A DNA stretch of 60,000 nt, filler included, from Hausera hauseri (Eukaryota), in the NCBI GenBank assembly GCA_046269625.1. It is 12 parts of 12 records of this genome, joined end to end, with 100 filler letters (N's around TTAATTAATTAA, not from the genome) between each part and the next. Parts side by side here need not be neighbours in the genome. Positions count along the whole stretch, not along the records: positions 12,137 to 17,843 come from JBJURY010202415.1; positions 17,944 to 22,023 come from JBJURY010773759.1; positions 22,124 to 26,928 come from JBJURY010429252.1; positions 27,029 to 32,321 come from JBJURY010288169.1; positions 32,422 to 36,814 come from JBJURY010604555.1; positions 36,915 to 41,107 come from JBJURY010708881.1; positions 41,208 to 46,386 come from JBJURY010315052.1; 5 more parts are not named here. One strand, written 5' to 3'. The notes beneath the pieces are model-generated. The model had not been told where the DNA came from and ran no database searches. It saw only the letters and a program-made list of their open reading frames with translations. Shown here piece by piece: positions 17,486 to 46,386 of this stretch (positions within the stretch are counted from its first letter, which is position 1; the number at the start of each line of letters is the position of its first letter). The position numbers and the translations under genes were made by a program.

Positions 17486-18397
17486 ATAATGTGTTACCAA
17501 CTAACGAAGCAAACATTTGACACTAAGCGCAGGTTAAAAAAACAAAAAAAAAGGTATAGCAACCAAATAGCAGCAGTGCTATATCGAGCTAACTCATTTC
17601 CATGACAGTGATAAAGAAATATTACTCTGAAAAGTCACCACATTCTTTATAAGCGGTTTGCTAGTTATTTTATGTTATGTTAATGAGCCATCCTCACTGC
17701 ATATCACATTAACTCTATAAGTGTTCCAAACTCATGGCTAATGGCAACAGGGGTAGGAAATATGCTGCAATCAGATAATATTGTTAGTACTGAAGAAAGA
17801 AAAACGACGATATAAACATATTCAAGCAACAACAAAAAAAATGNNNNNNNNNNNNNNNNNNNNNNNNNNNNNNNNNNNNNNNNNNNNTTAATTAATTAAN
17901 NNNNNNNNNNNNNNNNNNNNNNNNNNNNNNNNNNNNNNNNNNNAATCAGAAAGAATTAAGGCACTGGCTAGGACTTTGTGGATATTACGCAACTTATGTG
18001 CCAGATAACTCGAAAATCAATGTCTCTTTATATCGCTTACTTAAAAAGGGAATCAAGTGGAAATGGACAGACGTCGAACAGAAAGCCTTCGACGAAATGA
18101 AGAAAATTTTAACAAGTGAACCTGCTTTGCGATATCCAGATTTTAACTTATCTTTCATAATTAAGACCGACGCCAGCTACCGTCATACGTATACTGTCGA
18201 CAGTAGTGGCTAAGGACCAAAAAGATTGAGACGCATTCTTGGAAAAAACTCAATTTGCAATTAATACCACACCAAACCCAGCGACAGGATTCACACCATT
18301 TTTCATGATGTATGGACGTGAAGCCGTGCTACCCACGGACTTAGGAATGGTGCCATACGCAGTTAATACCGAGGACTTATAACAGAATTTTGCAGAA

Positions 18398-20041
18398 ATG
18401 TTACAAACGCGATTGCAAAAGTGTTGGGAAATCGCTAAGGAATTATCCCGAGAATATCAAGAACAGTTCAAGACGCAATATGATAAGAGAGCAAAACCGC
18501 ATGATATAGAACAAGGAAATTGGGTTTATGTGCATTATCCAGTAGCCAAAAAAGGCACCTCGCTGAAATTAACTCGCACGGGTAGAGGACCCTATGCAGT
18601 CACCCGAGTGACGCCGACTACAGTATATATCAACAAGAATGGAAAAGAAGAAGTTGTATCAGTACAGAGGGTTGTCAAGACGGAAATACGACCCAATAAA
18701 CGTTACAGTTTACGCCAGCGAAAGATAAAAACTTCTTCAATAGTTACTAGATCGATATCTTATGTACAAATAGTATTAGCCTTGTCATTAATTGTTTCGT
18801 ATATACCTACAGTGAAAGCAAGCGCCAAACAAAAGGATATCCGGAATTTACAGACACTCAGAATACGGGACATGGATTGGAGAAAGCCATGTGCATGGTT
18901 CGAATCAGATCGTCCTATTCAGAGACACATAGGATTTCAGATAACATTTATAACGACTGGAAATGAAATGAGTGTATTCGATTTTCCATACGGACACCAT
19001 AGGAGATGCTGTAACCTAGAATTCGGGAAAGTCTATAAATATAGCTTCCAGCCATTTTATTTATATAAGTTTGGAGCTCAAGCCGACATAGCCTCAGAGC
19101 TCACAATACAAATGCCACAGCAAAAGGACACTAATCAGGAAAAGACGAACGAGATAATTCGAAGCACTGATCCGATCAACAGACTCTTAGATGATAATAT
19201 TATTGGAATTCACGAGGATTTGAGAAACCAATGCATTCGGATTAAGACCAAATTTGGATTACCGGAAGACAAGGAAATCTTAGTCCAGTTTACGCCATTT
19301 AACACTTCTATTCCTAGACCGGCGTATTGTTCGTTGGCAAAGCGACGTCCCACCGTATGCTGTGTAATACAATTTGGACAAATGTACCAACTACAATTTG
19401 ATTTGTACGATACTTATCCATGTGAACGAAGTGTTTTCTTAAGAGGATATCGCCCAAAGAACGGAATATGGGAACTTCCACTTCCCACCACTACGAGAAA
19501 ACCATCCACGACGCCGAGTACAACTCGCAGTATTACGATTATCACTACGAACGAAATGTTAGGAAGTATACCGGTCAAAATCCTAACGAAGGGCGACAGA
19601 ATTCTATTCTACGCTGAAGAAACTTTAAATAAAGACGTCAAAATTGAGTGTCGCACCTTGCATACTAACCCAGTTGTGATTTTGAAAAAGAATAGTTTGG
19701 GAACGGTGTACAAATCGTTACGACCACAACATGAGCATATAATCAGAATGACCGCGGAGGGTAAGAACCCTAAAACCTTTACAGTACGAAATCTTGGTAG
19801 TAAAATTGTAGTAATGTCGTATAATGATATTAGTACTCGAAACGTGTTCACGACGCAAAGTTCTACTGAACCGAGTAATTTACCAATAATAAATATATTT
19901 GGTGTGTCAATTTCCGTTCTTGTCATAATAACAGCGATGACTGTTCTAGTCTCCAAAAATTGTAATAAACGCGGTAAAAATCGAAAGGGAGATAATTGGG
20001 AAAAAGGCAACCTAGACGGACTTTATGATAGCATAACCTGA
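18398..20041 (+). CDS. Integrase C-terminus fused in frame to signal peptide, three FN3-like modules, Thr-rich stalk, TM and a short Tyr-motif tail
   Basis: Hydrophobic SISYVQIVLALSLIVSYIPTVKAS from 18752; CCNLEFGKVYKYSF / CCVIQFGQMYQLQF / KSLRPQHEHIIRMTA; PTTTRKPSTTPSTT; TM IINIFGVSISVLVIITAMTVLVS; tail ends LYDSIT. The FN3 call is by motif only. Confidence 0.75.
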   Translation: MLQTRLQKCWEIAKELSREYQEQFKTQYDKRAKPHDIEQGNWVYVHYPVAKKGTSLKLTRTGRGPYAVTRVTPTTVYINKNGKEEVVSVQRVVKTEIRPNKRYSLRQRKIKTSSIVTRSISYVQIVLALSLIVSYIPTVKASAKQKDIRNLQTLRIRDMDWRKPCAWFESDRPIQRHIGFQITFITTGNEMSVFDFPYGHHRRCCNLEFGKVYKYSFQPFYLYKFGAQADIASELTIQMPQQKDTNQEKTNEIIRSTDPINRLLDDNIIGIHEDLRNQCIRIKTKFGLPEDKEILVQFTPFNTSIPRPAYCSLAKRRPTVCCVIQFGQMYQLQFDLYDTYPCERSVFLRGYRPKNGIWELPLPTTTRKPSTTPSTTRSITIITTNEMLGSIPVKILTKGDRILFYAEETLNKDVKIECRTLHTNPVVILKKNSLGTVYKSLRPQHEHIIRMTAEGKNPKTFTVRNLGSKIVVMSYNDISTRNVFTTQSSTEPSNLPIINIFGVSISVLVIITAMTVLVSKNCNKRGKNRKGDNWEKGNLDGLYDSIT

Positions 20042-20146
20042 CAATTACAGATCGGGTTATCCTATCATCAGACAGATAAAATGTTTTGTTTCAAAACGAT
20101 GATCTGTCTTAGGATTAACCTTTATTTTTATTTCAGCAGAGTAAGT

Positions 20147-22023
20147 ATGGCCGAGAAGGTGAAGAATTCCTCAAACAGTTCCAGTTTTGACATTGACAGT
20201 TTCTTGCAACAGCATGTTACGGTCCTAAAACCGTTATCCAAAAGCCTATACCGACAAATCGGGGAAAACCTGAAAAATACTAATTACCGAGAATTCACCA
20301 AAGAGAGCGAAATACCAAACGGGCTAAAATGGGGTCTAGAAGAGAACAGACTGGTCCGATTATGCGCTATGAGAAATCCCAAGGATGTACGAGTGTATCA
20401 CTTGAGGGACCTAATTCCTTATGAGCCAACACATCAGCAATTGTATATACATGTCGCTGATGGAGAAATTCAGTACAGGATTGTGGGACAATCCTGGAGT
20501 ACACAAAAGTGACAACAGTGGAAGTTTAGTACATATGAGCTGTGCTGTTTTAGCCTCATGAACTATGCGCTAGAGTTCAGAATTGCAGACATTCCCACTA
20601 AAATTATGATTGAGATGACATGGAGAACTGAGTTTATAAAGCCATTACCCCCGCTAATCTATATACAGAAACCTTCGCAAGATGATATTGAGCAGAACGG
20701 AGAATCATATAGAGTAGTCCCAGATGGACGGAATACCCGAATAATGGCAGTAAATTATTGAAAAAAAGATGATGGATGGTACTTTTCGATTGAAATCTCC
20801 ATTAGGAACACGAACGGAGAAGAGGTCCTGAACAAGATAATTGCGCCTCGGATTAGAATCAAAGACACTTTCCCAGACGTTACGGGAATTACTAAGCCTC
20901 AACTGGAGAAAGGAAAAGATTTTCTGGAGATACAAGAAGATATCAGCCACTGTCTTTATGGATACGTTGTTACTGGATTTCGAGTCCACGAGGCACTAGA
21001 ACGATTAGGAGTTAGACAGGAGTATATAGCCGGAATCCGAGAAATAAGCCGAAACCCTGCTGTCGTAAGTCAAGTGGAAAACACCTTAATGCGGAAAAGA
21101 GGATGTTTGCTTCCCGCATCAGCATCAGTCGAATAACAGTTTAAAATGATACTTGAAGCCATGAGTGGCGAGGGATTTAAATTTCCAAAATTAATGACAG
21201 CGAGTCAACGAACTAGCTACATCAAAAATGTCTATGACCATTTACGATGGGATCACGAATGGAAACCCAGAGAATCCATACAGAATGCAATATCCGACAA
21301 TAATCCTAAACTATTGATACAAAAATTCCGAAAAGGATTTAGTGACTACCCAAGTTATAGGCAAGTCGAACCTCAAAGACCGAACCACATGAAGGTAACC
21401 ATCCAGAACCAACGAAAACCCTCCACTAGTAAAAATTACGATGAATCAATACCGAAATCGGATGTTATAGAAAACCTAAAGGGCAGAAGACGAAAACTTC
21501 CTTCCTGGATTATATTCACAAAAAGAGGAGCAAAACCAGCAATGGACAAACAGACGAGAAGAGACCAATGATACATAACCAGATGTCAGAAGGACCCTCG
21601 AACAATCAAAAGGAAACATAGAATCAAGAGAAAGAGGAAAAGAAAGTGAAAAACCGTTAGTAATCAAGAAAGCCCAATCACTTAGATCAGAAGTTAATGT
21701 TCTTAGAAAAAGATGGGACAAGGATATTCCAATTGTAGTTACAGAATTTGGTGAAGTAAAAGAGTACAAGAAAATTTTGGTTATGGCTGAATATTACAGT
21801 AAACGAAAGATCAAAGAGGCTGTATTTTATGTGTCCACTGTTCCCCGAAGAATAGTGAGTGGAAACGGATATGCTAAAGAGGATTATACTATAGGCCGAT
21901 ACGTAGCCCCAATATTTCAATCAAAAAGCGGCACTAATAGGTTAACCATTCCTGTGGATACCCAAGTCAGAATTCAATTAAAGAGACTGTATAAAAGAAC
22001 CGGAATACCCGATCTGGACAAAC
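20147..22023 (+). pseudogene. Large unknown accessory ORF of the gypsy element (>600 codons), interrupted and running off the contig
   Basis: ORFs 20081/20147, 20558 and 21146 are in one frame, broken only by single stops (TGA 20510, TGA 20759, TAA about 21134). A frameshift near 21570 leads into the frame of ORF 21777. Confidence 0.6.
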
Positions 22024-25000
22024 NNNNNNNNNNNNNNNNNNNNNNNNNNNNNNNNNNNNNNNNNNNNTTAATTAATTAANNNNNNNNNNNNNNNNNNNNN
22101 NNNNNNNNNNNNNNNNNNNNNNNCATGTAAGTTTAGAAAAAAAAACTTTTTAAGACTCTGAACTGTGAAAAACATTGATCCAACTGAAAAACGTTTTAAT
22201 GTTTAAAAACTAAACTTTTTGATTTTAAGAGCCATTTATTCAAAGGAGTTGAAAACTTAATGCAAAATGTGTAATTTTTTTAGTTTGACTTATTTCTGTG
22301 AATAATAGTTTGTTAGTGTGTTAAAGAATAGGATAAATAACAACATCTGTATGTTATATATCTTATTACGTGCTGCATTTTGATTGGCTGCTGAATTTGT
22401 AATATAAAGTCATGAAAGGCATCAGCAGGGCAGAAGTCTTGCACCCGAGAGTAACTCAGTCTTTAGACGTCACTTTCCTTTTGTTTTGAATATGTTTGTT
22501 TTGTTTCCATTGAAGTTCAGTAAAGTCACAAAACTAAATGACTGGATTCAAGACTTATTCTGAAGAAACGTGTCGCGTCAGAAAGAACTTTTTGGGTGTT
22601 GAACTAGTGAGGGCTGGTGGCACTCACATTAATTATTGAAGTTTATTCAGTAATAATAAATAATAACTGTTAGTTTCAGCTCTGCTTTTATTGTGAAAGT
22701 CATGACTTTAACTATGAGCTGAACATCAAGTGTGTCAGAGTTTCCAAGTAAATGACACAAAGTTTAATATTTGATGTTCAATGAAAGACCAGAAGAAGAA
22801 AACAGAGATTGTCATGAAGCTCCTCAGTGGATCAGTAAAATATCAGCCTTATGTCGACACTTTAGTGTCACCACAACTTTCACATCACATTCATCTCAGC
22901 ACTAAACTAAATAAACACCTAGCATTCCTTGAAGGAATGCATATCACCCGCCACCTTTCATTACAGGAACAACACTTAGACTGGACTCTGATCAGACTTT
23001 TTAACAGACATTGGACCTTCTTCAAAACAAACTTCAGAATTTATCACATCTATTTTCCTGTTAGGTGTGAGAGTTGAAACTCTTTAACTTTTATAAATAT
23101 AGATTTCATAAATGACAAACTGTGTTTTCATGTATTTGTATTTAGTTCAGAATAGTTTAGATAAAGTTTGACAAGTAAAAGTATTTTAGATTTGAACCAG
23201 AGCTGACTGAAAATGGACCAGATTGTATGAAATAACCCTTTAGCTAGCAGCTGGAATCAGAAGCTAACTTCAGGTGGTCCTGTGGTGAGACCAGGTTTTT
23301 CTTCAGTCCTGTCGTCTCCTCTGAGACAGATTATTTTATTGTTTGTGGAAAACGATGCATGTTGCTCAGAGTTCATTTATCACAGCCAATGGATGTCTCT
23401 GAACAGAGTTTAAACTACTTTCTCCTCACACTGACATTTAGGAATGGATCTTTGTTGAGCTCTTGCTGACGACGTCTGGTTTAAAAAATATACAAAAAAC
23501 TGGTAATTATTTATTTTTTATTGTCACAGATTTGATTATTTTATTTATCTAATCATGAAAACAAAATTAAACCATTTTAAATAGCTGTTTATCTTTTTGA
23601 AGTTCTAATATTTCAAATAAATATTTTGTATTTAAACTACGAATGAAATAAATAAAATAGTTATTTTTTGTTTCAAATGCTCGTTCCTGATGAGAAAGTC
23701 CAATTATCAAAACCAACATGAAGCCATTTAAAAGTCTACATGTTGGGCTCATGTTCAGGAAAAAGTTGCATTAAATATATCCATCAATGTATTAAAATAA
23801 AAGATATAAAATCTAAAAGCTGTAGTTTCAGAACTCTGCTCTTTTTTCTTGCATGGTGTTTTTCTAAATCCAGATGTTTCTTTGTGCTGCACTGATGTTT
23901 CTTTGTGTGACTGAAGACAGTCTACGATCCTCTGAACAGAAGAGAACATCATGGTGTGCTGCTTTCTTTCAGGCTTCACTACAAGTTTAGTTCAAGGTCC
24001 GTGGGAAATTTGACAACACAGAACCAGTGAAGTCTGAATGTTTCTGACAGATTGATTCTGACAAACGAGGAGACAGGAAACCTTCAAATGAACAAGCAAA
24101 AGAGAAAAATATCCCCCGCTGCCTTTCATGTCAGAGTTTTACATTCAAATCATCTGATGTTGAGAAATGACAAAGTTTGAGTCATTTTTGTGTTTGTTAA
24201 GATTATTTAGATGTGGAGGCCAACTCAATATGAACAGGCATCAAAAGTTATTAATTAGATATACATCAATCAATAATGTTTACACACTGCGCTGTTGACA
24301 TGAATTACCATGTTCAGGTCTCCACAGCGTTGCGGATATCAAATGTGAGTGTTGCCGGACGGTGTTGGGTTGGAAATACGAACAGGCATTTGAACCCAGT
24401 CAGAAATACAAAGAAGGAAAGTTTATCATTGAAGTTGCCCACCTCATTAAAGACACGAATTGGGATGACATTCAGCCTTCGTCGAGTTTCCAATGTAGCT
24501 CGCCGACGTTTTCATCTCCATCGTCTTCATCTCCCTTGTCTCCAACATTTAGCGGTTTGCTTGAGAATGACATAAACAGTGGTGATAACACGACTGATAC
24601 CAACGCTCCAAATATGCCTTCTCCCGGACAGTCTGTTTAGTTTCATTTTTTTTCTTTCCAAAGCACTCTTTCTCGTTTTTTTTTCTAATTTCGAACAAAT
24701 CGACTTATGCTGCAAAATCCACTGAGAAAAAAGTATATGGACCGAACAAAAAACTGGAGTGTATAAGAAACTATTTGTTTATTTGACCATTTTTAATGAC
24801 TGAAATGTGAATATCCCATTTTATTTTTTTTGTTCTGTTCAGTTAAGTTCACAAAATCGACGAACTACCTCTGTACGATACGTTTATTTGTCGGTCTGTC
24901 TCTTTATTTTTTGTGTATTTGTTTTTTTGGACCATTGGATTTATTATCAAAATATAGAGGTAGTATTGCGTAATGTATTTGTTTTACGTACCCAACTCAA

Positions 25001-27028
25001 AATTGTATAAAAAGAATACTTTATTATTAACGATATGTTTATTATTTATTGACTCATTTGTAAAGTATAATTTGTGACTAGAGGATAAGATAGTTGTTAT
25101 GGGTTGTGAATTTAGATTATAGATAAGTTGACGATTTAATTATTTGAAAATGTTATTACCAATAAATTCTTTTGTTGCATAGTACTTCACCATTTTCTTT
25201 TGAAATCACTATTTCAAGGTTACTTATGAATTCTGCGCGAATCTAGATTTATTCCTAATTTCTCCTCTACGTTAACACACTTCATGACCTTACAGAGAAA
25301 GCAAACCACAAGCAGTACGATTGACTAACGTAAACCATACTGAATTACGCGTTTCTGCTAAACTATATTCTCGTATACTGTCTGACAAAAGAAGATTACT
25401 AAATGTCAGTGATTACGTAAAGAAAAACAACAGCTGGGTATTTTCTGTGTGAACTTGTTAATTAATGTGACGTGGTATTCATACATTAAAATTCATCACA
25501 CAATCCAAGTTATTGTGTGAATGTTACGTGAATGTCGACCGTTTTACTAGTTTTCTTCCTTCGCTTGGTTTATAGTTTTTTTCTGTCTCCTCCGAACATA
25601 AACTGGGTGTGGCCGCAGTTAATGATTGTTATTTCTTGTCCTGTTGCGGGTGAAGCGATGCTGCGTGCATGTTGTTCAAGTGGCTGGTAATATTGACTTC
25701 ATTGCTTATCGTTTGTACGTGATGGTGTGACTTCCGTGTCGTTTCTTTAAACCTGCCTTGCTCCAACTGACAGTGGCAGCCGCTGCCTTGACGAGAATCT
25801 CCACTGAAGGTCCTGGTCTGGTTATGTGATCTCGAAATGACTGACTTTGGTTGATATAATGTTAGAACGCGTGTAATATTAATGTCTTTCCCCGTTACAG
25901 TTAATATGAGTGGTTTGAGTGAATGTTACACAACGGTGATGAAAACTACACAGAAAGTAAATTCATTTCATAGTGGCATCATCTCCTACTCAACTTTTTG
26001 CGTGCAAATCTTTAGGTATGCTAGACCTATGGCCCATCTTCAGGATTAAACTGACACTCTTCACTCCAGCATCTCCTGTGATGCAGTAACATATAAAAGC
26101 TTGAGGCGTACTTGTAATGCCTGTGAGAATACATACAGTATTAAAGACTGAAGAGATTACAGAATGTCAAGATTGTGCCTTTAGAAAATTGCTTATACCA
26201 GTGCCGTAACAGTTTAGGTTTTATGTGTGAATGAGATATAATGTATCTTCTGCCGATTACTCATTTTTTTAAAATATCAGCTGTAATATTTTGTGAAATT
26301 TCAGTTACTGGTGTAAGCCAGGAGTAGCAGATAACGTATTTCATTCTTGTGCGTTGTCTTTACTTGATATTTTCCTAGCAGTGAAAATGTTAAAAACATA
26401 GCCGATTATGTGGCACCAATTCTTGTCGGATATGATCAGTTACACGACTTCAGGCATTTGTATAAAAAAACAGAAGGACTGACCACACTAAGTAAAATGG
26501 AAAAAAAACTTACGACAAAGTTATTCCTATTAGACGGGGTTTGGGCAAAAGGTGAGATGAATATGAGTAAACATAGCTTTATGGATTTTTACAAATAATA
26601 ATAAGGACGAAAATAAGTCATACAATCATATTATCATTATTTTTCAAAATGAAAATGTCTATCCCAGCTCACAAAAGGTGATAAAAAAAGGTAACAACTA
26701 CGGTAGCAGCAAGTCATTACGATCTAAGTTTCCCAGAGAAAGACTCAGTTTAATCACTTCTGGCCGATTCTGAAACAAAACTTGTTAACATAAATTCCTA
26801 CACTCATAACAATATCAACCTACCGACGTGAATATTTCATCCGATAATAACACCGTCAAAAAGAAGCCAAGTGTGAACTTTCATTTCCAGTACATTCCTG
26901 AAACAAATCATTTGTTTAAAGATAACAGNNNNNNNNNNNNNNNNNNNNNNNNNNNNNNNNNNNNNNNNNNNNTTAATTAATTAANNNNNNNNNNNNNNNN
27001 NNNNNNNNNNNNNNNNNNNNNNNNNNNN

Positions 27029-27746
27029 AATAAGAATGCCACATAGGATGGATATTTAGAGATTGGTCATTTTCCATGACTATGAAGAGGAAAAACCTTT
27101 ACATGAAATCTACAAGTTGGCATGCAAGTCAGCGATTGCTATATGGGGTCGAACCAGAATGCCGATTCAACTAATAGACGCATGCATCAGAAAGCTGAAA
27201 AAACTACATGAAAAGTATTTATCCATAAAGAAACATAGAACTAGGCAACGGGAAGGTGATAGACAGAATGAAGAAATCTGTAAAACTAAACTCAAACAGC
27301 TGTTCGATATTGCTACAAAAGATGTTTTGATTCAACTCAAAAATGAAGTTCGAGAATTTCTACAAAAGCAAAGGAACGTGTTTTCTTTCAGTATGAGTGA
27401 ATTTGACCTTCAAACAACTTTTAAAAAATTCAGAGAGCGTAAGAAAAAGAAAGCCATGGCAAAAGTAAGATATGCAGAAAGGCAGACGAAAGCAATTTCC
27501 AGTCCAACATCGGAATTTTCTTCAGTACCATCTACTGAGTATGAAAGCGAAGATGAATATCGATCTTTGAAATCGGTGTATATTGAGGTTGCCACTAATG
27601 ATGCAGTAATAGAAACACCTAAGAATATCTTTACATCCCTTGTAGTTGTTGGTGCTCTGGATAGATTTAATCTTTCTGACCCCAGTGCGGTATTTGTTGC
27701 AGGAACCATTATTCAGGCTCTTGGTCATGAGATTCTTGACACAACA
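27029..27746 (+). mobile_element. DDD/E DNA transposase N-terminal half (Sola2-like; family label tentative)
   Basis: IWGRTRMP..KLKKL..QLFDIA..EVREFLQKQR..ALDRFNLSD..ALGHEILDTT. Confidence 0.75.
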
Positions 27747-27959
27747 TGCAGTGCTCACATTAGGCATAAAACACATAGATGTGTAATTTATTTTTTGTTT
27801 AAATAATCATGTCTAGTTTTGTGCTTTTTTCAGTCAGAATTGTTATGTTATTGTTACATATCGTATTATCTGACTGCTACTCAAATTCCCTTTACGTATA
27901 AATCTTTTATGAAAACAACTTCAAGTTTATTTTATTGAGTGACAAGTTTATAAAATTTT

Positions 27960-30420
27960 ATAATGGAAACATCTCAATTGTATGTGATTATTATGTCGAA
28001 AGATGTCAATTTGCAAATCATTAGATCGTAATTATTTCATCAATTTCTATGATGATAAAAAGATTGCCAAATCGAAAATCGTACGGGGATCACAAATGGA
28101 ACATACAATGAAAACCCGTTAGATTACTCCATGCAACGTTTAACGGGAGTTGAGGAAATCGAAACCAAATTCTTTTAGTTCTAAGTATCGTCCGGTGGCA
28201 TTTCGTTTAAGGAATTCAAACAGCTGATCATTGAGAATCCAATTGAAAGTTTGTGCCATAGGAACAATATCCTGAATTTGTACAAATATGACATCATGGA
28301 TCCAGAATCAATAGTGTCAGAAATAAACCAAAGGGATTCCGAAAAAGCCCTAGTAGGTCAGGCTCGACTGTTGGAAAACTCGTACATGCACGGTGGACAT
28401 ATTTAGTTTTAATGAGCGAACTCCGCAGTCAATTTTTGGACATTAAAATTGTCAGTCATCTTCGTTTAAAATGTTCTGTAAAGGCACATCCAAAAATCAC
28501 CCAAGAAAATATTGCATCAAACTCTACCGTTTGGCGTAATATGTATCGATCTAATCATAGACTAAAATCTCAATCTGGATTCGAAATAAAAATTTGGAAA
28601 TTTCGTCCTTGAAATTGCTGAAGTTTTGTTTATTGTCGCTGGTAAAAATTTCTCACCCGTCGAAGCGACATATTACAAATTATCCGAATGGATGACTTCC
28701 GAGTAAGGTTCTGAGATAATGGCACAGCTTTTTAATCTTTATCAAAATTCTTTGTCAGTGATGTTAAAACTAATGTTCAATGTCTTTTTCGACAAAATTG
28801 GAAGGTACTTCGAGTTCAAGACATTCCGTTCCATAATTATTGATGTTAAACTATGTTTGAGAGATATTGCCATTGAAAATTTTGATTACTTACAGTGCAT
28901 TCTAAACTTCTTATCTGGACAAATAAACGTGGAACAAATAAAGAATGTAATATTTCCCTTGTTAAACTATTTTCGAATTTACCTAATACACGTGGAGATT
29001 TGAGGGAAACATTTCTGTCGACATCATCAAGGTTAATTAGTATGCTCAACAGTATTGCTGAATTTATGGTCACTCTTGCTCCTTTTGGATGGAATTCACC
29101 ATCATTTTCTAAGATCAGATGCTCTTTTGTTTGTGTTCTTCTGCAGTTAGAATCATATTGGAATTCTACTACAGTTTCTTCTGATGTCACAGATTTTAAT
29201 ATATGTCTTCGACATCTAGCTGCCTTGTCAAATTGCATCCAATCAGACTGTGACTTGCTTATGGATGTCCTTGAAAAATTTGTTCACCATGATATTGTCA
29301 TTGTTAAACACACCGAGTCCCAACTTCATTTATTTTGGTATCAAAAAATAAATAGCATTTCTTTGTTTCATTGGGATAAGTTACAGAAGTAATCCGAATT
29401 CGTCAGCCATGTTATCGAAAAACTTTGGACAAAATTTGCGAACGAGTCTCACGACAAATTCTCAAATCCATTTATTTGAAACACTCCTGATTTTTCTAAA
29501 CTACAGTATGTCAGACTACTTAAATCTTAATAAAAGTCCATTAACATTCTTTAAAATGTTGATTCGAGTTATCGATGAATTCGGTATACTGGCAGTTTTC
29601 TATTCAGGTGAATGTATTGATATATTCTCTAAAGACCTGTTTGATAAATTACATTTGACCATATTTGAGTCTACAACAGGAACAGTGATCAGAACTCTCT
29701 GTACTCTTGAAAGTATACCGTTAGTGAAACGTTATGTCAATAAGAAACATTTGATGAATCTGTTATTGAATCCAAGAATTTTTTTGCCACAAGTTTTTGC
29801 TGTCAATGTTGAAGTTTGTTCGAAAAAGCTTCTGAACATTTTGTTGAATTTCACTAGAGATTTTCTGTTTTACATTCTCTATGTAAATGGAAAACATAGT
29901 AGAAATTCGTACTAATTTCTCAGACCTTTACAATGAATTTTTGTCTCAAATGTTAAAGGGATTTATACCAATATCTACCAAACTCGCTGAGTATAACTAC
30001 GACTTGCTGCATGGAGTAGAATCTACCATACGTCCTTCAACAACTGTTAATTCTTGGTGTGGGCATTTCAGTTCAACCATTTCTCAAATGTCGCGTCTAA
30101 AATTTTTCTGTTCGTGCTTACCGGCACGTGCTTACATTCTTGATCTAATACCGCATAATCATCGCTTCATTGTTGAACTCATCACAGTCTGAAAGATCTT
30201 TCTTGATACATTATTTAATGAAATTCGCTCAAAGGGCAATTTAAGCTTGCCGTCGATTGTGAAAATCAAAATCTGTTTATTATTGAGTATGGCCATTTTA
30301 CTCTTCTCAACAGTATGGTGTCTTACGTTTACCTGTCTAATTCAAATATGAAACAACGTGTCAGCATTTGCGATCCACAAATCCTCTATTTTACAAAGAA
30401 ATCCAATCAATTGACCAAGC
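27960..30420 (+). pseudogene. Unidentified Leu-rich, helical-looking host-type gene fragment, possibly with about 25-nt introns
   Basis: Chain of close or overlapping plus-strand ORFs (28412, 28719, 28895, 29409, 29887). GT-AG 25-mers at 28703-28727 and 29899-29923 link open frames. A full model could not be resolved. Confidence 0.4.
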
Positions 30421-34041: not shown

Positions 34042-34262
34042 AAAAGAATTGTTCCTGGAATCAGAAGAATCATCGTGAGATGATTATTTAATTGATATTT
34101 CTAACTCCAATTTAATACAGTTTAGACTAAGGAAACTACCATTAATTAACAGAATTATTCGAAGAAAAGATTGTTCTTTGATCAGAAGAATCATCGTGAG
34201 ACGATAATTTAGCTGATTATCTTAACTTACATTTAATACAGAGTATCATTAATTGACGGAAT
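34042..34262 (+). repeat. Imperfect tandem duplication of about 120 bp
   Basis: TTGTTC..ATCAGAAGAATCATCGTGAGA..TTTAATACAG..CATTAATT occurs twice, starting near 34042 and 34165. Confidence 0.8.
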
Positions 34263-35510: not shown

Positions 35511-36429
35511 ATTGAAGGGCATAGGAAACATTAATTATTTAGAAACGAAATAATAAGATGCGCGAATACAGATATGTATATTTTGGTACATAGGTCCATA
35601 ACATGCTCCATGTAGCAAATCTGAATCCAAATGAATTTCAGGAACATAATTATTGTTACTATCTTTAGTGATGAAAGAGTGTGAAGTTTATACTGGAATA
35701 ATTTTAGAGGGTTTCTCAATGGAAAATTTGGAAAGACATTAAATATCCCATCCTCTTCAGGTCACTATATCAGTAAAATCCTGCTCCTATATATTTTACC
35801 CATCCTAAGTACAGTCCTTCAACAAGAGCAGAGCTACACAAAGCCCATGTGTCTATGAAGTGCCTGTGTCGTATTGAGGTCCTCTTGGGTTTCCCAATCT
35901 TTCCCCTATCAATCATATGTAAGATCAATTCAAATATCAACTCTGATCCAGTTCAAATTTGCCAGATCACACGAGTTAGTCACAACAGCTGTGGGCGGAC
36001 TTGATACAAAAAAGGATTCAGTGACTGCAACAAACTGCCACATGTATCCAAGCCCAAAGGAGAGCCACATCTTACTTACATGGGAACAGTACTGCCCCTG
36101 TACTTCCAACTCCAAGATACATTTGATTTGATACTTGTAATCATTATAATACAGTCACATTCAGATGCAGATTTATTTAATTTCCACCACTTTGTCTGAC
36201 TGCTTAACTTTTGTTTTGCACAGCTTTCCTTGTAATAATCTGAATATACTAAATTCCGGCATATACTGAGTGTTATGTGTCACACTTGTTTCAGGGCTGA
36301 AAGACCAAATACCAAGCCTCTCAGTCAGAGGGTCTCTCAAAGCTTAGACTGGTTTTCTAAGACAAGTTTCTGAACCGACAAAAAGCATGTATCAGTCAAC
36401 CTGGCTGTAAATGGGTATCTGGAACTGTA

Positions 36430-36814
36430 TGTCATCATCATCCTCTTCTGGTGCAAAGGCTGTCATAAATATATGTTTATCACAGTTCAAGTTGTCGCCA
36501 GTCATACATCTGCTACTGATTGTCCACCGTTCACGCAAACCATCTTTCTATCTTGTCAATTAATTCTTTTACCTGGTATTGTGGTGTCTTTGGAGACTAA
36601 ATTCTTCAGGTGTTCCTTCCCAGCCTGCTTCCTGTAATGCATTTTCATGTGATCTCCTTGCTGCCCCTGGGATTTTCAACCCTCTTGTGAGAAACTACAT
36701 CTTTGTTGCTGTCAAAGAATGTTCTGTTGGTTATTCATATCCAAGACTGACAGCCATATAGCATTATGGATCCAGTGTGACACTGTGGGACTCTTGTTTC
36801 TTAATAGCAATGTT
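36430..36814 (-). mobile_element. RTE-like LINE 3' relic, next to a SINE core-like motif
   Basis: Decayed C-terminal LINE-like coding followed by a short GAT repeat; TCAGTCAACCTGGCTGTAAATGGGTA at about 36390-36420. Confidence 0.4.
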
Positions 36815-36914
36815 NNNNNNNNNNNNNNNNNNNNNNNNNNNNNNNNNNNNNNNNNNNNTTAATTAATTAANNNNNNNNNNNNNNNNNNNNNNNNNNNNNN
36901 NNNNNNNNNNNNNN

Positions 36915-37780
36915 GTAGTTCGGGGTTGTGTTCTTTAGTGACGCCGAGAGTGTGCAGATGTGCCAAAGACGTGCGTAAAAATTCTGATGGTCGTTGTGTG
37001 CCTATAGCATTGTCGTGGGAGAAGCGTTGTATGATCGTGCCCATTGAGGTCTCTGTGATCTCAAGAACAGCGTTGGAAAGTTGTGAATATGGATCAGGAA
37101 GTTCAAAGATTTCAAGCATGTTGTGAATTCGTGTTTTGATATTATTACGGAGTAAGAAGAGGAGATTGTGTGCCTTGGTTAAGGAATCGGTGATATTGTT
37201 TGCCTGTAGCCATAGCTGATGAAATTGCAACCACATTTTTCTGGAGCCTTGGTTGTCAATGAAGAATTTGGTGAAATAAGGAAAGAAGCGAAAAAGGCAG
37301 TAGGTGAAAGGTTATTAACGGAAGTAGGGGTGGGTTTTTGAAGCAGTATTACAGGTTTTGGTTTCATGGTGGTTTTATACGTGGTTTTTATGTTTGGCGA
37401 TGAGTTTATGCCACCGCGGATACGGAAGTGTATGTGGAGGTGGATATAAGTGGAGGAAGGTTGCAGGGTCCCAACGGGAGGTACCGTGGAGCCGTGGTGT
37501 GAGGTAAACGTCAGGTGGGCGAAGAAAAGTGGAGATGACGTTGTAGACAGCCGCAGTGTTTAAGTGTGTTAATGCGGTTGTGTAAATGTTTATTATTTTA
37601 ACAAAGAGGGAATACGGAGATATCATGTAGCCAGGGACGTGTCATGGGGCGTCAGCGAACGGTGCCGCCTGACTCAATGGTATAGGTGGGCGGCCGGGAC
37701 TTCGGTCTCGCCGCGGCGGATCACAAACTCCGGGATAGCCTAGTTCCCCGCATGCAATGTTTCTCCATCGGTCACTTTCG
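36915..37780 (-). mobile_element. Ty3/gypsy (Mag/CsRn1-like) gag with upstream leader or LTR-like segment
   Basis: WLQFHQLWLQANNITDSLTK..PDPYSQLSNAVL..IGTQRPSEFLR (LGDRKPSxxL-type gag); AATAAACATTTACA at 37594-37581. Confidence 0.75.
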
Positions 37781-37799
37781 GATCCGATAGAATGAGTTT

Positions 37800-38657
<858 letters not shown>

Positions 38658-38699
38658 TTAGAACCGTTTCTCAGATTTGACGGGGGCTTTCTTGGTTGT

Positions 38700-40930
38700 T
38701 GTTTGCATGGAGCAGATAAATCCTTGCCTCTGAGTAGCGTTTGTTTCTTAGCTTGTTAGAAGTCGACAACGATCATATTGTTAGTATTCCTACTGGGGGT
38801 CGCATGGATAGTGAGCGACATTTCGTTGTGGGCTTTTTCTGATTTGTATAAACCGATGTCAACAATGCGGTTATTTGTTAATCCATCAGGCATGTGTGCC
38901 TTCCTGCTGTATACCTCAAGATATCTCGGCACCTTACTGGGATCAGCAGAATTGATACCGAAGCGTACACTAAAAATTACTGAGTCCGGTCGCCAGTTGC
39001 TAATGGCCATTGCTACGGGGTTTTTACAAACAACTGTGATACCCGGTTCCTGATTGGCCATGCAACTATTATGTATATACTGTAGAGTATAATTCCAACA
39101 GCCGATCTCTACTGAACGAAACGTCGTCCTACTGTTCAAAGTGCTTGAAAAAATCAACGGATATATGATCACATGATAGGTCATCAAGAAAAACGCTATC
39201 CTGAGTCTTGTGCGGCTTTTGTTGACCCTCTATAATTGTTGTTGGATCATCGGTAATATGTTAAAACACAGGTGCGCGATCCAAACAACAATATAAATAT
39301 GAATTTCTGAATGAGTCGCGTAACCAGTACAACACATCAGAGGTAGGGACCATAGATGCTATAGCAGTGTGACTACATCCGTCATTGATTGTGCGCGATA
39401 TGTCAAACATGTCCAGTGATAGTGGTAGCACTGCCGTGCCTCTCTGCTACACGATAGGCAAATCCGGCCGGCCCAACAGCCAAGCATAACGGTGTGTTAT
39501 TGTGTGCGCAAACGGCTGTCGGTAAACCTGGTTGATGGGGAACAGATGTGCATCTGGTTAGAGTTAGCGGAGGGTCGTTGCCAGTTATATCGAGAAAGTA
39601 GTTGGTATCGACGTACAGATCATCAGCACCCGTTTCCAAAACGACACAGAACGCATATTCGTTATTATCATCGTCAGAATTTTTAAAATTTGAAATGGAT
39701 AAAAATATCAACTTTACATGATTGAAAAATCCCATGTCCGAGTGCCACGAAATAAGGAAGCAACGTTTCTGACACAATTTATGGAAGTTTGGCTGATAGT
39801 TGATCGTTTCCAAACAACTAGACACGGGGAATATATTTAGGATTCGTTTTCCAAGAATTACATCTGAATCATCTAAAGGTTCGGTTCGTATAGTATGGCG
39901 CCAGACTCTTGTCACGTCCTGTGTAATATCACCCGTAAGTACAATTGATTCATTACAACATAATCCCCTGAGCACCAATACGTAACTGGTGAATATTCGA
40001 GGATTCCCCAAAAGATCTCTCAAGCTCCGAATGACTTTGAAAAGTGTTGCATTCTCATATAATGTACGATGATTAACGTTCCGATCGGCAACGCCCTCGT
40101 TACTCAGGTAGGGTACAAATGATTCTGATGTAAACGCATCTGATGTTGGCCATAATTTAATTGCTAATGACGATACAAACGACGACACATTCATCAATTT
40201 AAATGTATCCGTGTAACAATACGGATGTTCGACGATTTCTAATGAGGATACAAAATAAAACTCATTCATTTTTTTTTTCAAATGACTCGACCCGTAGTTT
40301 TTTCACCCCTTTCGGCACGTAGACGATAAAACCTGTTACTAAATTATCATTACGTATCAACGGTGCGTTCATTTTTTGGAATTTATCCACCGCCTCATTT
40401 GTAATTAGAAATTCAAAACATTCGGACAGATTCTGAACACAAAAACCAGCAATGTCGTAGTTATTTAAATCATGGTAATCTCTGAAACTCAAGGAACTCT
40501 GATAACCAAAACTTATGTTTTGATCTCGTCCCAAATGAGTAGCCTTTTGTAATGATACGCTCAACGTATGATATAGAAGTTTATCTAATTTCATCAAATT
40601 ATTGACATTGAATAACTCGACTACTGAATTTTGATTGTGTTCGTTCGAGAATGGGGATGTATCAATATATTCAAACGAATTATTCAACGAATTCGGATCA
40701 TCGCTTTTTGGGTTTAAAATATTCGATAGCGCTGTAACTGTATTAACGAAACATTGATTAATACGCTTCCTTTTACGGCATGCAACTGCATATTTACCTT
40801 TTTAACTTTATTTCCAAAGCTATAGATTTCCAGTAACATGAATGAAACTGTTGGCCAATCTTTATGATGAACTTGGCTAAAAAAGAATCGAAACGATATT
40901 AAAATCCAAATTTTAAAACAGAATAACAAA
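38700..40930 (-). pseudogene. UBR4: Highly divergent UBR4/p600-like internal fragment, with stops and frameshifts
   Basis: Collinear with the UBR4 sequence as I recall it: SVPHQPGLPTAV..NTPLCLAVGP (EVMNHPGLVCC..GVPLVVMVKP); DG..YWLRDS; VDFFKHFEQ*DDVSF..LLELYS (IDFFEH..TDVEF..LLQVYN); VPRYLEVYSR (APSYIEIFGR). The part above about 39900 is not recognisable. Confidence 0.6.
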
Positions 40931-41207
40931 ATGGCTGATGATCTTTTAATTCGACTAAAAGATTTTTATTATTAAAACAATTTTTTTTAATTACATACAA
41001 TGTCACAGAAAATTGATACAAAAGGAAGGAATGTGAATTCGACAATCAATTCTGCTGAGTCATTCCGACTGACGTTTTTTAAAGTAATTCGCAGAATCCT
41101 GAATTTCNNNNNNNNNNNNNNNNNNNNNNNNNNNNNNNNNNNNNNNNNNNNTTAATTAATTAANNNNNNNNNNNNNNNNNNNNNNNNNNNNNNNNNNNNN
41201 NNNNNNN

Positions 41208-44200
41208 GCAAAGGTATCCTTGTATTGTTTTAATATTTTAACTATTCCTTCCTTCTCCCCATCTGTTAGGGTACTATCCTTGCCAAACAAGTCGAAATCA
41301 TTCCAATTAATTGGAGTTTTAACAAATTTTGTTATTTTCTTCTTTTTATCAATATGTCCTTTTAATCTATTTATAGGTTTTGTTTTAAATCGTATGCCAC
41401 ATTCCTTTTTTGGACTCTGCCGTTGTTTTTCCATAAAATCGCACAACTCTTGTACAGTGGAGATAATGGCTTCTGTTGCCTTATTGCCTATATCTTTTAT
41501 AATATACACATAGGCAATTCTTGTACCTTTTCTAAGAATTTTGGGCTTGTTTGAAACATTGGCTATCCGAATAATCACTTGTTGTTCACGGATATTATCA
41601 ATTGTATGAGCTATCCATAATTCGCTCTTGTTCATAAAATTTATATTTGGCTCTATATAAACGTCACCTTCATATCTTTTTTCCACCACTGCTTTAAGTA
41701 CAACTTCTGTTCTGGCTGGAATCAGTACGTCTTCTTTGATAGAGACTGTATCCCTCTTCTCTCTTTTCATCTGTTGAAAAGGTTGAATTTGCTGAGTTTC
41801 TAAATGAATACACATGCCTTTCAGTTTTGCCAACGCATCACAACCAAGTATGGCTTCTGCTACTAATTCATCTGCTATTCTAAATTTTTGTTCGAATTTT
41901 CGATTCGTAATTTTAGTATAACATTTTATTATATCTCGTACTTGTACCTTTGTTCCGAAAGCGCCAACATTCGTAAGATCTTCTGTGGGTTTCTGTAACT
42001 TTTTCTTTAATTGCTCTGGCAACTGTTTGCGAGAGATCATCGAAGCCAATGCTCCTGTGTCTATTATTGCAGTAAGAGGATATCCGTCTATCCAAATTAC
42101 TACTCTTGGAATTACTTTTCCTCCATCTATACTTGTTATCAAAGCCTCTTTTGGGGCCGTTGGATAAAATTTGAGTCTCACGTGCTTCGGATCGTAGTTA
42201 TCTACATCACTAGAACAATGTATATCTATATATTCATTAGGAGACATAAAACATTGTTGTTCCATTGGATATTCACTCCATTGTTTCATTTGGGGAATAT
42301 CCGAAAGTAAGGTTCTTTGTTTCTTACTTCGAGCAGTGATTAAACTCCATGTCTTTTTAGTATGTTCAAGTGATTGAGGTTTTATTTCCTTCACCTTCTT
42401 AGTCGAGTTTATTGGAGATTCATCGTCATCGTTATTTGAATCATTCTTATTTTTCTGCTTCCATTCAGCGTCCTTTTTCATTAGGAAACAGCTAGCTATG
42501 AATGGAATTACGGCGTAGATGATTTTCCATGTACATCCAACAGCTTGTTTTATACCATATCCTTTTGTAATCATAGTTAAAATTGCTTTTATAAAGGCAA
42601 AAATATAATAAAATCCCAACCATCCAGAATTAAACTGACCAAACCACATGTACCATCCCCATGCGGTTGCAAATATATCTTTAGCAATTCGTTTTGCATA
42701 ATCGGGTCCCATTAAGTTTTCCCAATTAGCTTTTCCATCATGATCAGCTAATACTTTCATAGTCATTTCCGTTAGGACTTTTTGTCTTTGCTGAGGAAAC
42801 ATCATCATTCTTCTATGATTTTCCATGTCTTGTTCTGAGTATACTCCCATCTTTACTAGATCCGTCAATGGTTTATATGTTTGTTCGGTCTTCAAGTTAA
42901 TAAGACTAATTCTACGCGGCGGCGTAATCTGTTCCCTTTTTGGCATTCTTACCCAAAAATTATCGCTCAGTCTAAATGCTGGCGACATTGTGTATGTACA
43001 ATTTTGATGTATGTATGGTTTTTCTGTCGGGTCCAACAATATCCGAGTAATTGGTTGTAAAAATCGTGGTTTCTCTTTATACCAAACAGGTAACTCCATA
43101 GTGCAGTCCGTGGTTGGTCTTAATTTGACTGCTACCTTCGTGCACTCAAAGGTAACGAGTGTTTCTCCCATTGTTCGTGCAAATTTTCCTTCCGCATCTG
43201 GCGATTCAGCTGGATCTTTTATCACTCCATCTGTTATTGTTGATAAATAGATTCGGTTTCTAATTATCTCTCTATTTAACTTACAGTCGTTTAATATTAT
43301 TTCTCGGTACATGGCATAAATATTTTCTTGCTGGAAGTAATAAATGAAATCGATTTTATTATCGAAATACAAGTGGGGTTTCACTTCTGATTTATCAATT
43401 TTCTTCTTAGCTTTTAGTATCTCTGTGGTAGATAAAAATATTCCTTTATAATTTGTTCGGAATACAGTTTGATCACATCTTCTGGTATCACTTTCCAGTT
43501 TGAATCTCATACCATCCTGAGGATTCGCTAAATATACTACAGTGGGAGTTTCAATCATATCCGATACTCGATCTAATCTACTCTTAGATATTTCCTCTTT
43601 ATACACTCGTCCTTTTGTTTCATTAAACTTTCCTACCTTTAACAAAGCTAACTGACATTGGTCCCGGTCAACTTCATATGACATAATTGATTCACCAGTG
43701 TCGCATTCTTTATTATAGTAATCACATTCAGGAAATGTCATCATCTTTCCTGAAGATAGTTCGAAAAGGGCATCATACTCTCTCAGCTCGACTTGATAGT
43801 CTTCAATAGCCACTATATTATCTAAAATTTCACCGTTGATATTATAAGACTCACCCTTACAATATCCTGTCTTGTCGATTGTTCCAGCCACAAAAATTCT
43901 TTTATTGATAATTTTCCCTTTCTGAGCTTTCAGTCTAATATTACCAATATTAATCTGTTTTGTCACGAAAGCCTCTATGCACATCCTCTTGCTTATAGGA
44001 AGTGGTTCAAACGGAGTAGTTGGTTCGACTATTGCCGAATTTCGATACCAGTAACCACAAATGAAATGGAAATGATTTTTTCGAACAAAGCATTCCTTTA
44101 CTTTAGTTTTCATAAACTCCGACTCTTGATAAACGTAATATTGTTTTTCTGGTATTATAGTTAATGACGCTGGATTAGCAAATGGGCATTTCTCTAGTTT

Positions 44201-44974
44201 TAATAAAGAATATATTGGACCCTCCTTTGCTTGACTACAATCATAAGCGATAATCGAGAGAGCCTTTGGCATTAGGCTAAACAGAAGGAGTATAGGTATA
44301 ACCTTAGTTAACCAGGATAGATCAAATTCTGGTTGTGGATTTCGTTGAATTTCCGATTGTTGAGGTGGACGATGTTCTGTTCGTTGTTGCATGATTGGGG
44401 CTGATTCGTGTATTGCCGTATGAACCAAGCTAATAATCCAACCACCTCTACATTTTACCCATCCTTCAACATTAGCCTTTAACGCTCTCGTAGCGATTTC
44501 TATATTTCTCTCTATCTCTTCTTGATTCGGATTTACACTGTTCATTACTATTATTTTATATAAGAGATAGGACATTGCTGTCACAATTTTATTTCGGGAT
44601 ATGCCAGTTCCCATCATTCTGGATAATATATCTCTTTCCTGGATTTCGTTTATCCTTTCATCTGTAGGAATATCTGCAAATTGTTCACTAATCTTTGCAA
44701 TTTCATTTCTAATACTTTGCATTAATAAATCCGGTATTTGTAGATTGGTATTAAACTCAACAAATGCATTATGCATTCTTGCTAACAGGGTTTGAAATAG
44801 TGTTGTAAGTGATACATTATCTACGTCATATTCGTCCTCCGTTGTTAGTAATCTTTGGACAACTTCGTCATCTCTAGCTTTTCTGCCTTTCAACTGATAA
44901 AGTTTCGTTGTTCCTTTTGGTCTACCACGGTTTCTTTTATCCGTTTGTATTTGCTCTGATATAGGCATATTCAT
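41208..44974 (-). CDS. Polyprotein: AT-hook, helical region, signal peptide, chuvirus-like glycoprotein, TM, retropepsin, pre-RT linker (frame open from 45121)
   Basis: RNRGRPKG; signal WLTKVIPILLLFSLMPKALS|IIAYDC (mature start 44254); Cys-rich ectodomain; WGWYMWFGQFNSGWLGFYYIFAFIKAILT..WKIIYAVIPFIASCFLM (to 42479); AIIDTGALAS (Asp at 42061) and EAILGCD; LTDGEKEGIVKILKQYKDTF. Confidence 0.9.
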
Positions 44975-45054
44975 TCCGGCTTCTACTTGTTCTTGTTGTT
45001 GATGTTCAACTTCTTGTGCCTCTTTTGGTCTAACATCAGTATATATCTCATCAA

Positions 45055-46386
45055 TTATCTCTTGTTCGGTCTGTTTGTAAGTGATGCATACAGGATTATA
45101 TCGGTTTCCCAGATACCTACTTCATATAAGGTTTCATAGTCCATCAGCGTTCGCCCATAGAAGCGTAACTCTAATTCTCCTTGGGGTTGACTTATTTCGT
45201 TAATTTTATGTTTCAACATATCTATTGTATCCAACGATCTCATCCTGAGAGCATGGAAATCTTGATTATATTGTTGGAGAGTAACTATTACTTCGGGGTT
45301 TTCTCCAACTGTCCTCACTCTATCTGCATATCGATAGATTATATACCGTACGATATTTTGATAAGGACTCGTACCGGCAGCATATATTAACAACAAGTCC
45401 AATAAATCAACAAATTGTTGATGGTTAATCGTTGGCATTAATAACATAGATAAATCTTGTCTAAATCGATTGCCATCAATTAATTCTTGGTTGTTATAGC
45501 TAGCTATTTTGCGAACTATTTCTACGCCATTCTGATCTAAGTCCACAGACGAAGATTCATAACTTGGAGATTTCTCCTTTATCTTCTTTTTCCTTATCCT
45601 TTTTATCTTTTCTTTAGGTTCATTTTCTCTGCTTGATTCACTTTTTTCACTTTCACTACCTGTAGATAAGTTGAGTTCTGGGGTTTTCAATTCTTCTTCC
45701 TGTATCAAGGGTTTATCTTTCTTTTTAACCCTTTTCTTCTCGACGTCCGATTCCGATGCGGGAGTCTTTTTGGGTCTACCGATGGGAGCGATGACTGAAT
45801 TTTCATCATTTATTTTCTGTCTTTTCTCACAAATTTGTTGCTCCTTTAGTTCGAAATACAGCTGTTTTAATTCAGCTATCTTATCTTCATCTTCTATTGT
45901 ATTAATCTTACTTTCTTTCAATTTAGATCTGATCTTTTGTTGAAGTTTTTCTATAGTATCTTCGGGTTCTGTGTCAGTGGTTTCATGTTCTTTATCTGTG
46001 TCAGATATATTTCCAATCATTTCGACCTGCTTCTTCCTTTGGTTTGATTGTCCTTGATTAGGGCAGGAACGAGCCATATGTCCATATTTTTGAAATGAAA
46101 AACATAATGGCTGTCCATCTTGATTAACCGGAGGCTTTCTCTTGGCAGATTTCTGAGGTTGGTTTTGCCAAGAAACCTTTTTCTGCTGTTGTTCCGGTTG
46201 GCTAGAATACTTCTGAAAAGGCTTTTGCTGAAAATTTTTCTTTTGTTGAAAATTTTTCGGCTTCTTGTCATCACTTTTGGGATGCTTTTTAATATTCTCG
46301 AGTCTTTCATAATTGACTTCGATTTTTCTGGCCTTACTGACGGCTTCTTTGTAAGTATCCGGATCTGCAACGATAATATAATTTTG
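45055..46386 (-). CDS. Gag C-terminal part, degenerate zinc knuckle, charged linker and ubiquitin-like domain (open from the contig edge)
   Basis: Frame is open from 46386: PDTYKEAVSKARKIE (gypsy capsid end), CFSFQKYGHMARSC (CCHC knuckle with the 2nd Cys as Phe), Ubl LRMRSLDTIDMLKHKI..LRFYGRTLMDYETLYEVGIWETDII at about 45294-45085. Confidence 0.85.
   Translation of the reverse strand, partial: QNYIIVADPDTYKEAVSKARKIEVNYERLENIKKHPKSDDKKPKNFQQKKNFQQKPFQKYSSQPEQQQKKVSWQNQPQKSAKRKPPVNQDGQPLCFSFQKYGHMARSCPNQGQSNQRKKQVEMIGNISDTDKEHETTDTEPEDTIEKLQQKIRSKLKESKINTIEDEDKIAELKQLYFELKEQQICEKRQKINDENSVIAPIGRPKKTPASESDVEKKRVKKKDKPLIQEEELKTPELNLSTGSESEKSESSRENEPKEKIKRIRKKKIKEKSPSYESSSVDLDQNGVEIVRKIASYNNQELIDGNRFRQDLSMLLMPTINHQQFVDLLDLLLIYAAGTSPYQNIVRYIIYRYADRVRTVGENPEVIVTLQQYNQDFHALRMRSLDTIDMLKHKINEISQPQGELELRFYGRTLMDYETLYEVGIWETDIILYASLTNRPNKR

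Follow-up and report, generated by a model that had tools for sequence, protein, structure and literature searches.

Two contigs in a 60,000-nucleotide stretch of the Hausera hauseri assembly GCA_046269625.1 (here, the window) break off on opposite sides of a reverse transcriptase (RT) core. This raises the question of whether they are two halves of one giant enveloped retroelement family, as an initial annotation had proposed. The window strings together 12 unlinked contigs, with artificial N/TTAATTAATTAA spacers between them. As annotated, contig B (window 41208-46386, read on the minus strand) stops in ..ILKQYKDTF just before RT, and contig A (window 17944-22023, plus strand) starts just past the RT core, in the RT thumb at QKELRHWLGLCGYY. 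On balance, our analysis favors a different answer. Contig B represents part of a giant gypsy element of the Burro type. Contig A comes from a related element, probably in another family, and has an internal deletion. In natural relatives, the modules of both occur within one frame, whose product is likely cut by signal peptidase to give a fusion protein together with a predicted fibronectin type III (FN3) membrane protein, the latter likely used for attachment. The giant enveloped element is real but already known as Burro/GYPSM1 (PMC6431247); the FN3 membrane protein after the integrase is apparently undescribed.

The annotation had combined the two contigs into one map: gag, ubiquitin-like domain (Ubl), glycoprotein G, protease (PR), RT, RNase H, integrase, FN3/transmembrane protein, and a downstream open reading frame (ORF), ORFx. 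This map exists in cis in natural relatives. L002 is complete: a single 3703-codon frame encodes gag, Ubl, a Bcl-2-like domain, G, two proteases, RT, RNase H, integrase, a signal, two FN3-like domains, and an anchor, and is followed by a 222-codon ORF and then an exonuclease ORF, for a total of 13.4 kb without long terminal repeats (LTRs). L001 is like L002 from Ubl onward, with B-type and A-type modules in cis on a single contig; no LTR pair was found in L001 or L002. A signal-like stretch after the integrase and a C-terminal hydrophobic stretch are present in all seven G-carrying relatives whose frame extends past the integrase (P0007, P0008, P0018, P0155, L001, L002, and L004; the L001 signal was seen by eye and lies under threshold), and five of the seven have an FN3-like domain there.

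These relatives came from several searches. A metagenome scan yielded four loci, and a search of 1.84 billion proteins with the Bcl-2-G region of contig B gave 966 matches; among the best 150 of these, the long proteins have G upstream of PR. P0008 and L013-L016 are animal gypsy elements filed within bacterial metagenome-assembled genomes, where they most likely represent eukaryotic contamination. One frame of P0155 (4844 residues) encodes G and seven protease-like stretches, along with ankyrins and C2H2 fingers, a signal/anchor pair inside the chain, Pol, and an FN3-like tail; by published description it is near Burro1 in size and content.

The features of contig A are listed below; P0002 is the peptide of its 551-codon frame.

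17944..18177 (+): RT thumb/connection, then RNase H as far as its residue 38 (Pfam RT_RNaseH_2 positions 1-38, E 1.1e-10)
18178..18180 (+): putative deletion junction with a frame change; the rest of RNase H, the integrase zinc finger, and the catalytic core are absent
18179..18754 (+): end of the integrase core and GPY/F-type C-terminal domain, with two in-frame stops
18755..18820 (+): second internal signal peptide, predicted (P0002 124-145; hydropathy)
18833..19465 (+): two beta-rich ectodomain units, FN3-like by motif only (weak profile match, E 0.05)
19481..19543 (+): Thr/Ser-rich (mucin-like) spacer, by sequence
19547..19855 (+): FN3-like/Ig-like beta-sandwich domain, homologous to the post-integrase domains of G-carrying relatives
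19880..20041 (+): predicted membrane anchor (P0002 499-515; hydropathy 2.52) and short basic cytoplasmic tail, then a stop
20147..21571 (+): ORFx, an ISG20/REX4-type exonuclease-like relic (core ~20732-21259) with three stops and the catalytic residues lost
21582..22023 (+): ORFy, open to the contig end, with no Pfam match

The integrase tail, the signal, a beta-rich ectodomain of about 350 residues, and the anchor form the 551-codon frame. When the 202 window peptides were searched with a profile of eight FN3-like domains from five relatives, the contig A domain was the sole match to fall below E 1 (E 1.1e-4), and it scored 16.8 bits with this profile, compared with at most 9.1 bits in 1000 shuffles. 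The FN3 guess of the initial annotation holds as a predicted fold. The domain at 19547-19855 is predicted by AF2 to be a seven-stranded Ig-like sandwich (predicted local distance difference test [pLDDT] score, 77), and its closest solved folds are mostly of the FN3 kind: the top Foldseek hit of the model is an FNIII domain of integrin beta4 (E 2.5e-3), and VIA aligned 85 residues with FN3 (Z 7.6; root mean square deviation, 2.8). The FN3-like profile also found FN3-containing receptors and matrix proteins in the PDB (best E 0.0066). Pfam fn3 gave no match in nine members of the FN3-like family. The single-sequence fold of the first two ectodomain units is unreliable (pLDDT 35.6; Atlas lead 0.80-0.83). 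A PDB sequence search with P0002 found nothing, no relatives turned up when the viral collection was scanned with P0002, A1, A2, and A6, and word-index protein searches with P0002 gave no match at 303-965 or 966-2755 residues, which is weak evidence.

Downstream, ORFx (stops read as X) matches the ORFs behind the long frames of L001 and L002, with E values of 6e-6 and 9e-5 in a comparison with 4 loci and of 2e-5 and 3e-4 in one with 16 loci. ISG20L2 was found with a profile of the three sequences (E 3e-16), and among solved structures the closest are the DEDDh-type ISG20L2/ISG20. By alignment, contig A ORFx does not have the catalytic D, E, D, H, D of this type, the acidic residues and the His being lost; the L001 and L002 ORFs keep the D and E of the first motif and the H and D of the last. 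Contig A shares with the Burro-like clade both the FN3-like cargo behind the integrase and the exonuclease ORF. Exonuclease-like stretches were also seen in the polyprotein upstream of G, in P0012 (400-760; best E 0.035, weak) and, by eye, in P0018 (115-295).

Contig A had been described as containing RNase H and integrase. Only the 38 RNase H residues are there, followed by the frame change into the end of the integrase core, and 344-389 residues (1.0-1.2 kb) that all eight measured relatives carry at this point are absent. The junction may be an internal deletion, the alternative being an assembly chimera. The lost stretch of about 1.0-1.2 kb takes in the integrase catalytic region, which rules out autonomy for this copy. 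Bit scores of the integrase tail are 87-108 with FN3-cargo elements and 76 with three plain animal gypsy elements; with eight viral-collection gypsy loci, it gives less than 30 bits or no match. L013, found via this tail, is its best integrase match and also carries post-integrase FN3-like domains; direct comparison of the contig A and L013 ectodomains gave no match. An RY-x-LR-x-R motif lies between the integrase tail and the signal peptide (window 18700-18730, plus strand) and recurs in most relatives; it may resemble the chromatin-binding motifs of foamy virus Gag.

Contig B has the following features; P0001 is the peptide of its 1303-codon frame.

46063..46104 (-): gag zinc knuckle, second Cys replaced (by sequence); the start of gag lies beyond the contig edge
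45301..45531 (-): conserved helical domain directly before the ubiquitin-like domain; aligns with L002 (two copies) and L003
45094..45258 (-): ubiquitin/SUMO-like domain (Pfam ubiquitin E 4.6e-5, below the Pfam cut-off)
44912..44938 (-): AT-hook-like RGRP motif (by sequence)
44438..44725 (-): Bcl-2-like domain, BH1-BH2 region (Pfam Bcl-2 E 8e-4, below the cut-off)
44255..44320 (-): predicted internal signal peptide before the G ectodomain (P0001 267-283; hydropathy, the -3/-1 rule pointing to cleavage)
42374..44254 (-): Chuvirus/Monjiviricetes-type (gB-like, class III) fusion glycoprotein G (Pfam PF24664 E 1.8e-80)
~42569-42619 (-): predicted G membrane anchor (P0001 834-850; hydropathy), followed by a second hydrophobic stretch
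41816..42109 (-): aspartic protease, DTGA intact (Pfam RVP E 1.1e-9)
41208..41815 (-): linker at the position of the Burro dUTPase-like domain, running to the contig end just before RT; aligns with relatives

The AT-hook-like motif, the Bcl-2-like domain, signal, G, anchor, protease, and linker all lie within the 1303-codon frame. As annotated, both contigs place an internal signal and a membrane protein, by hydropathy, within a Pol-containing frame (1303 codons in contig B and 551 in contig A). The annotated domain list of contig B stands for Ubl, the AT-hook-like motif, G, and PR but had missed the Bcl-2-like domain between the AT-hook-like motif and G. A six-sequence profile of this domain has Bcl-2 as its best natural match in the PDB (E 0.0028), ranked behind two designed repeat proteins, and a PDB sequence search with the contig B region alone found nothing. 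The helical domain always precedes the ubiquitin-like domain (counterparts at L002:1624-1842, L002:2380-2610, and L003:1723-1956), and the pair is duplicated in L002. It has no convincing PDB or Pfam match, and a TFIIS-N-like identity is unsupported by the same searches. AT-hook-like motifs, similar by eye, are present in P0007, P0009, P0155, and L003. In the sibling P0004, whose G is 85% identical, the gag N terminus and a Pfam zf-CCHC match are present, and gag runs on into G in one frame; the frame break near 45.1 kb is thus specific to the contig B copy. The PR-RT linker has no Pfam dUTPase match, and its dUTPase-like label is by position only.

At 80% identity or more, 21,823 contigs of run X1 (which possibly includes the source of the window itself) and 2,491 of run X2 align with contig B, covering 30 of 30 bins; most of those from X1 are 80-95% identical. 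Contig B is part of a large, diverged repeat family; contig depth is not copy number, and these counts give none.

Do the two contigs then belong to one family? Contigs A and B show no DNA or protein similarity in direct comparison, and neither LTRs nor an RT core was found in either. The annotation expected roughly 1 kb of RT between them; the gap is 247 codons (~0.74 kb) in eight of the nine relatives examined, L002 being left unmeasured. Both contigs would end at RT because no other stretch is common to so many copies, which would break short-read assemblies. Repeats tend to fragment where their copies have most in common, and for that reason complementary contig ends are weak evidence of linkage. 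Relative distances lean against a single family. Scaled to P0008, the distance to four core relatives is 1.79 for contig A Pol (95% interval, 1.46-2.23), compared with 1.18 (1.05-1.33) for contig B G and 0.99 (0.78-1.28) for the contig B PR-linker; with scaling to P0018 or L004, the order A > B is unchanged, with slight overlap for the PR-linker against P0018. Equal distances to common relatives, as one family would have, were not found, different genes being compared. Contig A has only 5 stops in 1319 codons, a decay of a few percent, so neutral decay is probably too small to explain the Pol excess. At the RT thumb/RNase H start, contig A is 37-42% identical to the core relatives, which are 59-78% identical to one another; other G carriers reach 45-58%. 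The contig B G sequence nests with the Ubl/Bcl-2-bearing group (95/90), and the PR-linker tree is poorly resolved. By PMC13524379, one planarian genome holds six such elements, and the six env pairs compared are 32-38% identical, with one at 64%, which supports different families. Contigs A and B probably come from different families.

That both are copies of one family with an unusually diverged Pol and the full map gag-Ubl-Bcl-2-G-PR-RT-RNase H-integrase-FN3/TM-exonuclease seems unlikely to us, given the nonoverlapping relative distances and the low identity of contig A to the core. It would nevertheless fit with the complementary modules in cis in L001 and L002 and with the alignment scores, by which both contigs are nearer the same core group than P0018/L004. 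GC content at third codon positions (0.30 versus 0.38 for the two contigs) was rejected as a family test: it rises from 5' to 3' within single elements, and a similar difference is mirrored inside L001 and L002. A single insertion is far less probable still. The phylogenetic placement suggested by the annotation gave a divided result: free trees of contig A Pol (~240 columns) put it on a long branch outside the FN3-cargo clade, but approximately unbiased (AU) tests do not reject nesting inside that clade (P = 0.10-0.19). A second Pol tree left out L006, L010, and L012 (near-copies of L007) as well as L011, P0016, P0022, and the window's other gypsy, which have no usable integrase block. The free trees also leave room for an improbable third reading, that contig A comes from a lineage without G that acquired or kept the FN3/anchor protein and exonuclease, the FN3 protein working alone, e.g., in cell-to-cell contact or as a decoy receptor. 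Contig A Pol lies outside the G-carrying clade in all free trees, and in L013, which matches its integrase most closely, the sequence breaks off upstream of the protease, with the G region out of view. The FN3 frame is open over 551 codons between flanks with stops, although zero of five stops there is not significant (P ~ 0.07 by rough estimate). Set against this, all five FN3-cargo elements with a visible upstream part carry G, and the exclusion of contig A has low support on a long branch.

The reading of contig B as a Burro-type copy and contig A as a deleted relative from another family has several points to its disadvantage. The distance test compares different genes over ~240 Pol columns, and a family with a fast-evolving or swapped Pol would give the same result; nesting in the FN3-cargo clade also stands unrejected by the AU tests. 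The contig B G sequence is likewise a long branch. Contig A Pol is at best sister to all G carriers (84/84), once another long branch is removed; because the free trees put it outside the FN3-cargo clade, its own family may lack G altogether. The post-integrase membrane proteins of P0018 and L004 do not match the FN3 profile, so this cargo is not constant. Fold scores are moderate, with the best VIA score (Z 8.1) going to the bacterial Ig-like DUF3244, tied with FN3 at 7.6, and the best Foldseek E value at 2.5e-3. The second hydrophobic stretch behind the G anchor leaves the predicted topology unproven, and the model is read from sequence and predicted folds.

What the proteins might do follows from the layout of the long frame seen in L002: Gag-Ubl-Bcl-2-like-signal-G-anchor-PR-RT-RNase H-integrase-signal-FN3-like-anchor, then a separate exonuclease ORF. 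Judged by hydropathy, such a polyprotein would cross the endoplasmic reticulum membrane alternately, leaving the G and FN3 domains lumenal and Gag and Pol cytosolic. Host signal peptidase would free the N termini of both ectodomains, the Bcl-2-like domain would be left tail-anchored, like cellular Bcl-2, and the integrase would stay tethered until the element protease cuts. G would fuse membranes; the FN3 protein, made 1:1 with G, could bind host cell surfaces, a step to which we give slightly less than even odds. For a stalked type I protein produced 1:1 with a fusogen, the simplest role would be attachment or adhesion, and on this our confidence also falls just short of even. Nearly as likely is that the FN3 protein modulates the host, acts as a decoy, or is cargo that does no more than anchor, comparable to Burro's Bcl-2-like, ubiquitin-like, and ankyrin cargo. 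Post-integrase cargo varies between clades, the nearest folds include cytokine and growth factor receptors, L001 has another signal-FN3-anchor cassette before RT, and rhabdovirus-type class III fusogens bind receptors unaided. The type I topology, Thr-rich stalk, and in-frame coproduction with G would better suit a particle surface protein. A complex prediction of L002 G with its own FN3 pair, made without alignments, scored 0.00, and no verdict was drawn. The extra L001 cassette lies between the proteases (L001:4750-5320), giving that locus three FN3-like domains in two cassettes.

More tentatively, Burro-type elements may be retrovirus-like agents with two glycoproteins, a captured RNA virus fusogen upstream of Pol and a host-like FN3 attachment protein after the integrase, split by signal peptidase and sharing out fusion and attachment as in paramyxoviruses and herpesviruses, while a tail-anchored Bcl-2 homologue keeps the producing cell alive. 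To our knowledge, enveloped LTR retroelements are generally thought to carry one env. Behind the integrase, a second membrane protein that is conserved and has an adhesion fold of the host type would show a modular entry system with a viral and a cellular donor, beside which the single-family question matters little. Burro elements are abundant in planarians, where RNA interference is routine.

Elsewhere in the window, an unrelated gypsy RNase H fragment (50923-53137, minus strand; Pfam E 1.8e-24) adjoins a DDE_1 transposase (E 6.7e-27), and a protein kinase fragment lies at 9879-10298 (minus strand; Pfam E 2.2e-13). Frames at 1057-2208 (plus strand) and 53747-54232 (minus strand) resemble pieces of Polinton-type DNA polymerase regions, without a Pfam match; the latter matches the contig at 4488-12036. 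Positions 54960-60000 are a 5-kb low-complexity simple-repeat array, the source of many spurious long frames.

Among known systems, no description of a post-integrase FN3 or second membrane protein, or of an ISG20-type exonuclease ORF, in such elements was found in the literature, with the original Burro description, Repbase entries, and figures lying outside that search. The Burro section of PMC6431247 names no signal peptide, FN3 domain, or anchor after the integrase and no exonuclease ORF; fibronectin, Bcl-2, and ubiquitin are absent from the main text of PMC13524379, and fibronectin and Burro from seven of its supplements. PMC13524379 describes GAG-ENV-POL errantiviruses of Nematoda, Bryozoa, and Platyhelminthes with an env of the HSV/gB type (HSV, herpes simplex virus) that, as in contig B, lies upstream of pol; contig B G shares by eye YVYQES, ELRE, C-x-TGES, DGMRF, and TNY-x-G with the planarian C1a group, a motif likeness and not an identity figure. 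On this likeness, the host is probably a flatworm. Bdelloid rotifer LTR elements (PMC5408684) likewise have an exonuclease ORF (ORF3) downstream of pol, as in contig A, but theirs is a DEDDy 3'-5' exonuclease that replaces env, whereas the one here is of the DEDDh type and accompanies env, the contig A copy being without its catalytic residues. Mosquito BEL/Pao elements with chuvirus glycoproteins share the PF24664 fusion protein family but belong to a different retrotransposon superfamily (PMC7642597), whereas here pol has the gypsy order and env lies upstream. The closest likeness is to Burro1-4/GYPSM1 of planarians, compared by description only. The published order is gag, CCHC knuckle, Ubi/SUMO-like, BCL2-like, env, PR, dUTPase-like position, and RT, with an env that resembles the fusion proteins of mononegaviruses and sits in frame after gag and before pol, and with polyproteins near 4,900 residues that contain ankyrins (PMC6431247, Burro section). 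Long LTRs, a total length above 30 kb, and a high copy number also mark the Burro/GYPSM1 kind. The MATH, BIR, and ankyrin domains of Burro were not seen in contig B. This contig carries the same kind of env in frame, with gag before it and PR behind it, and, preceding this env, Ubi/SUMO-like and then BCL2-like domains that score below Pfam cut-offs but stand in the published order and are conserved in relatives. Because its domain order is as published, including the in-frame env, contig B is a further member of the known Burro-type kind.

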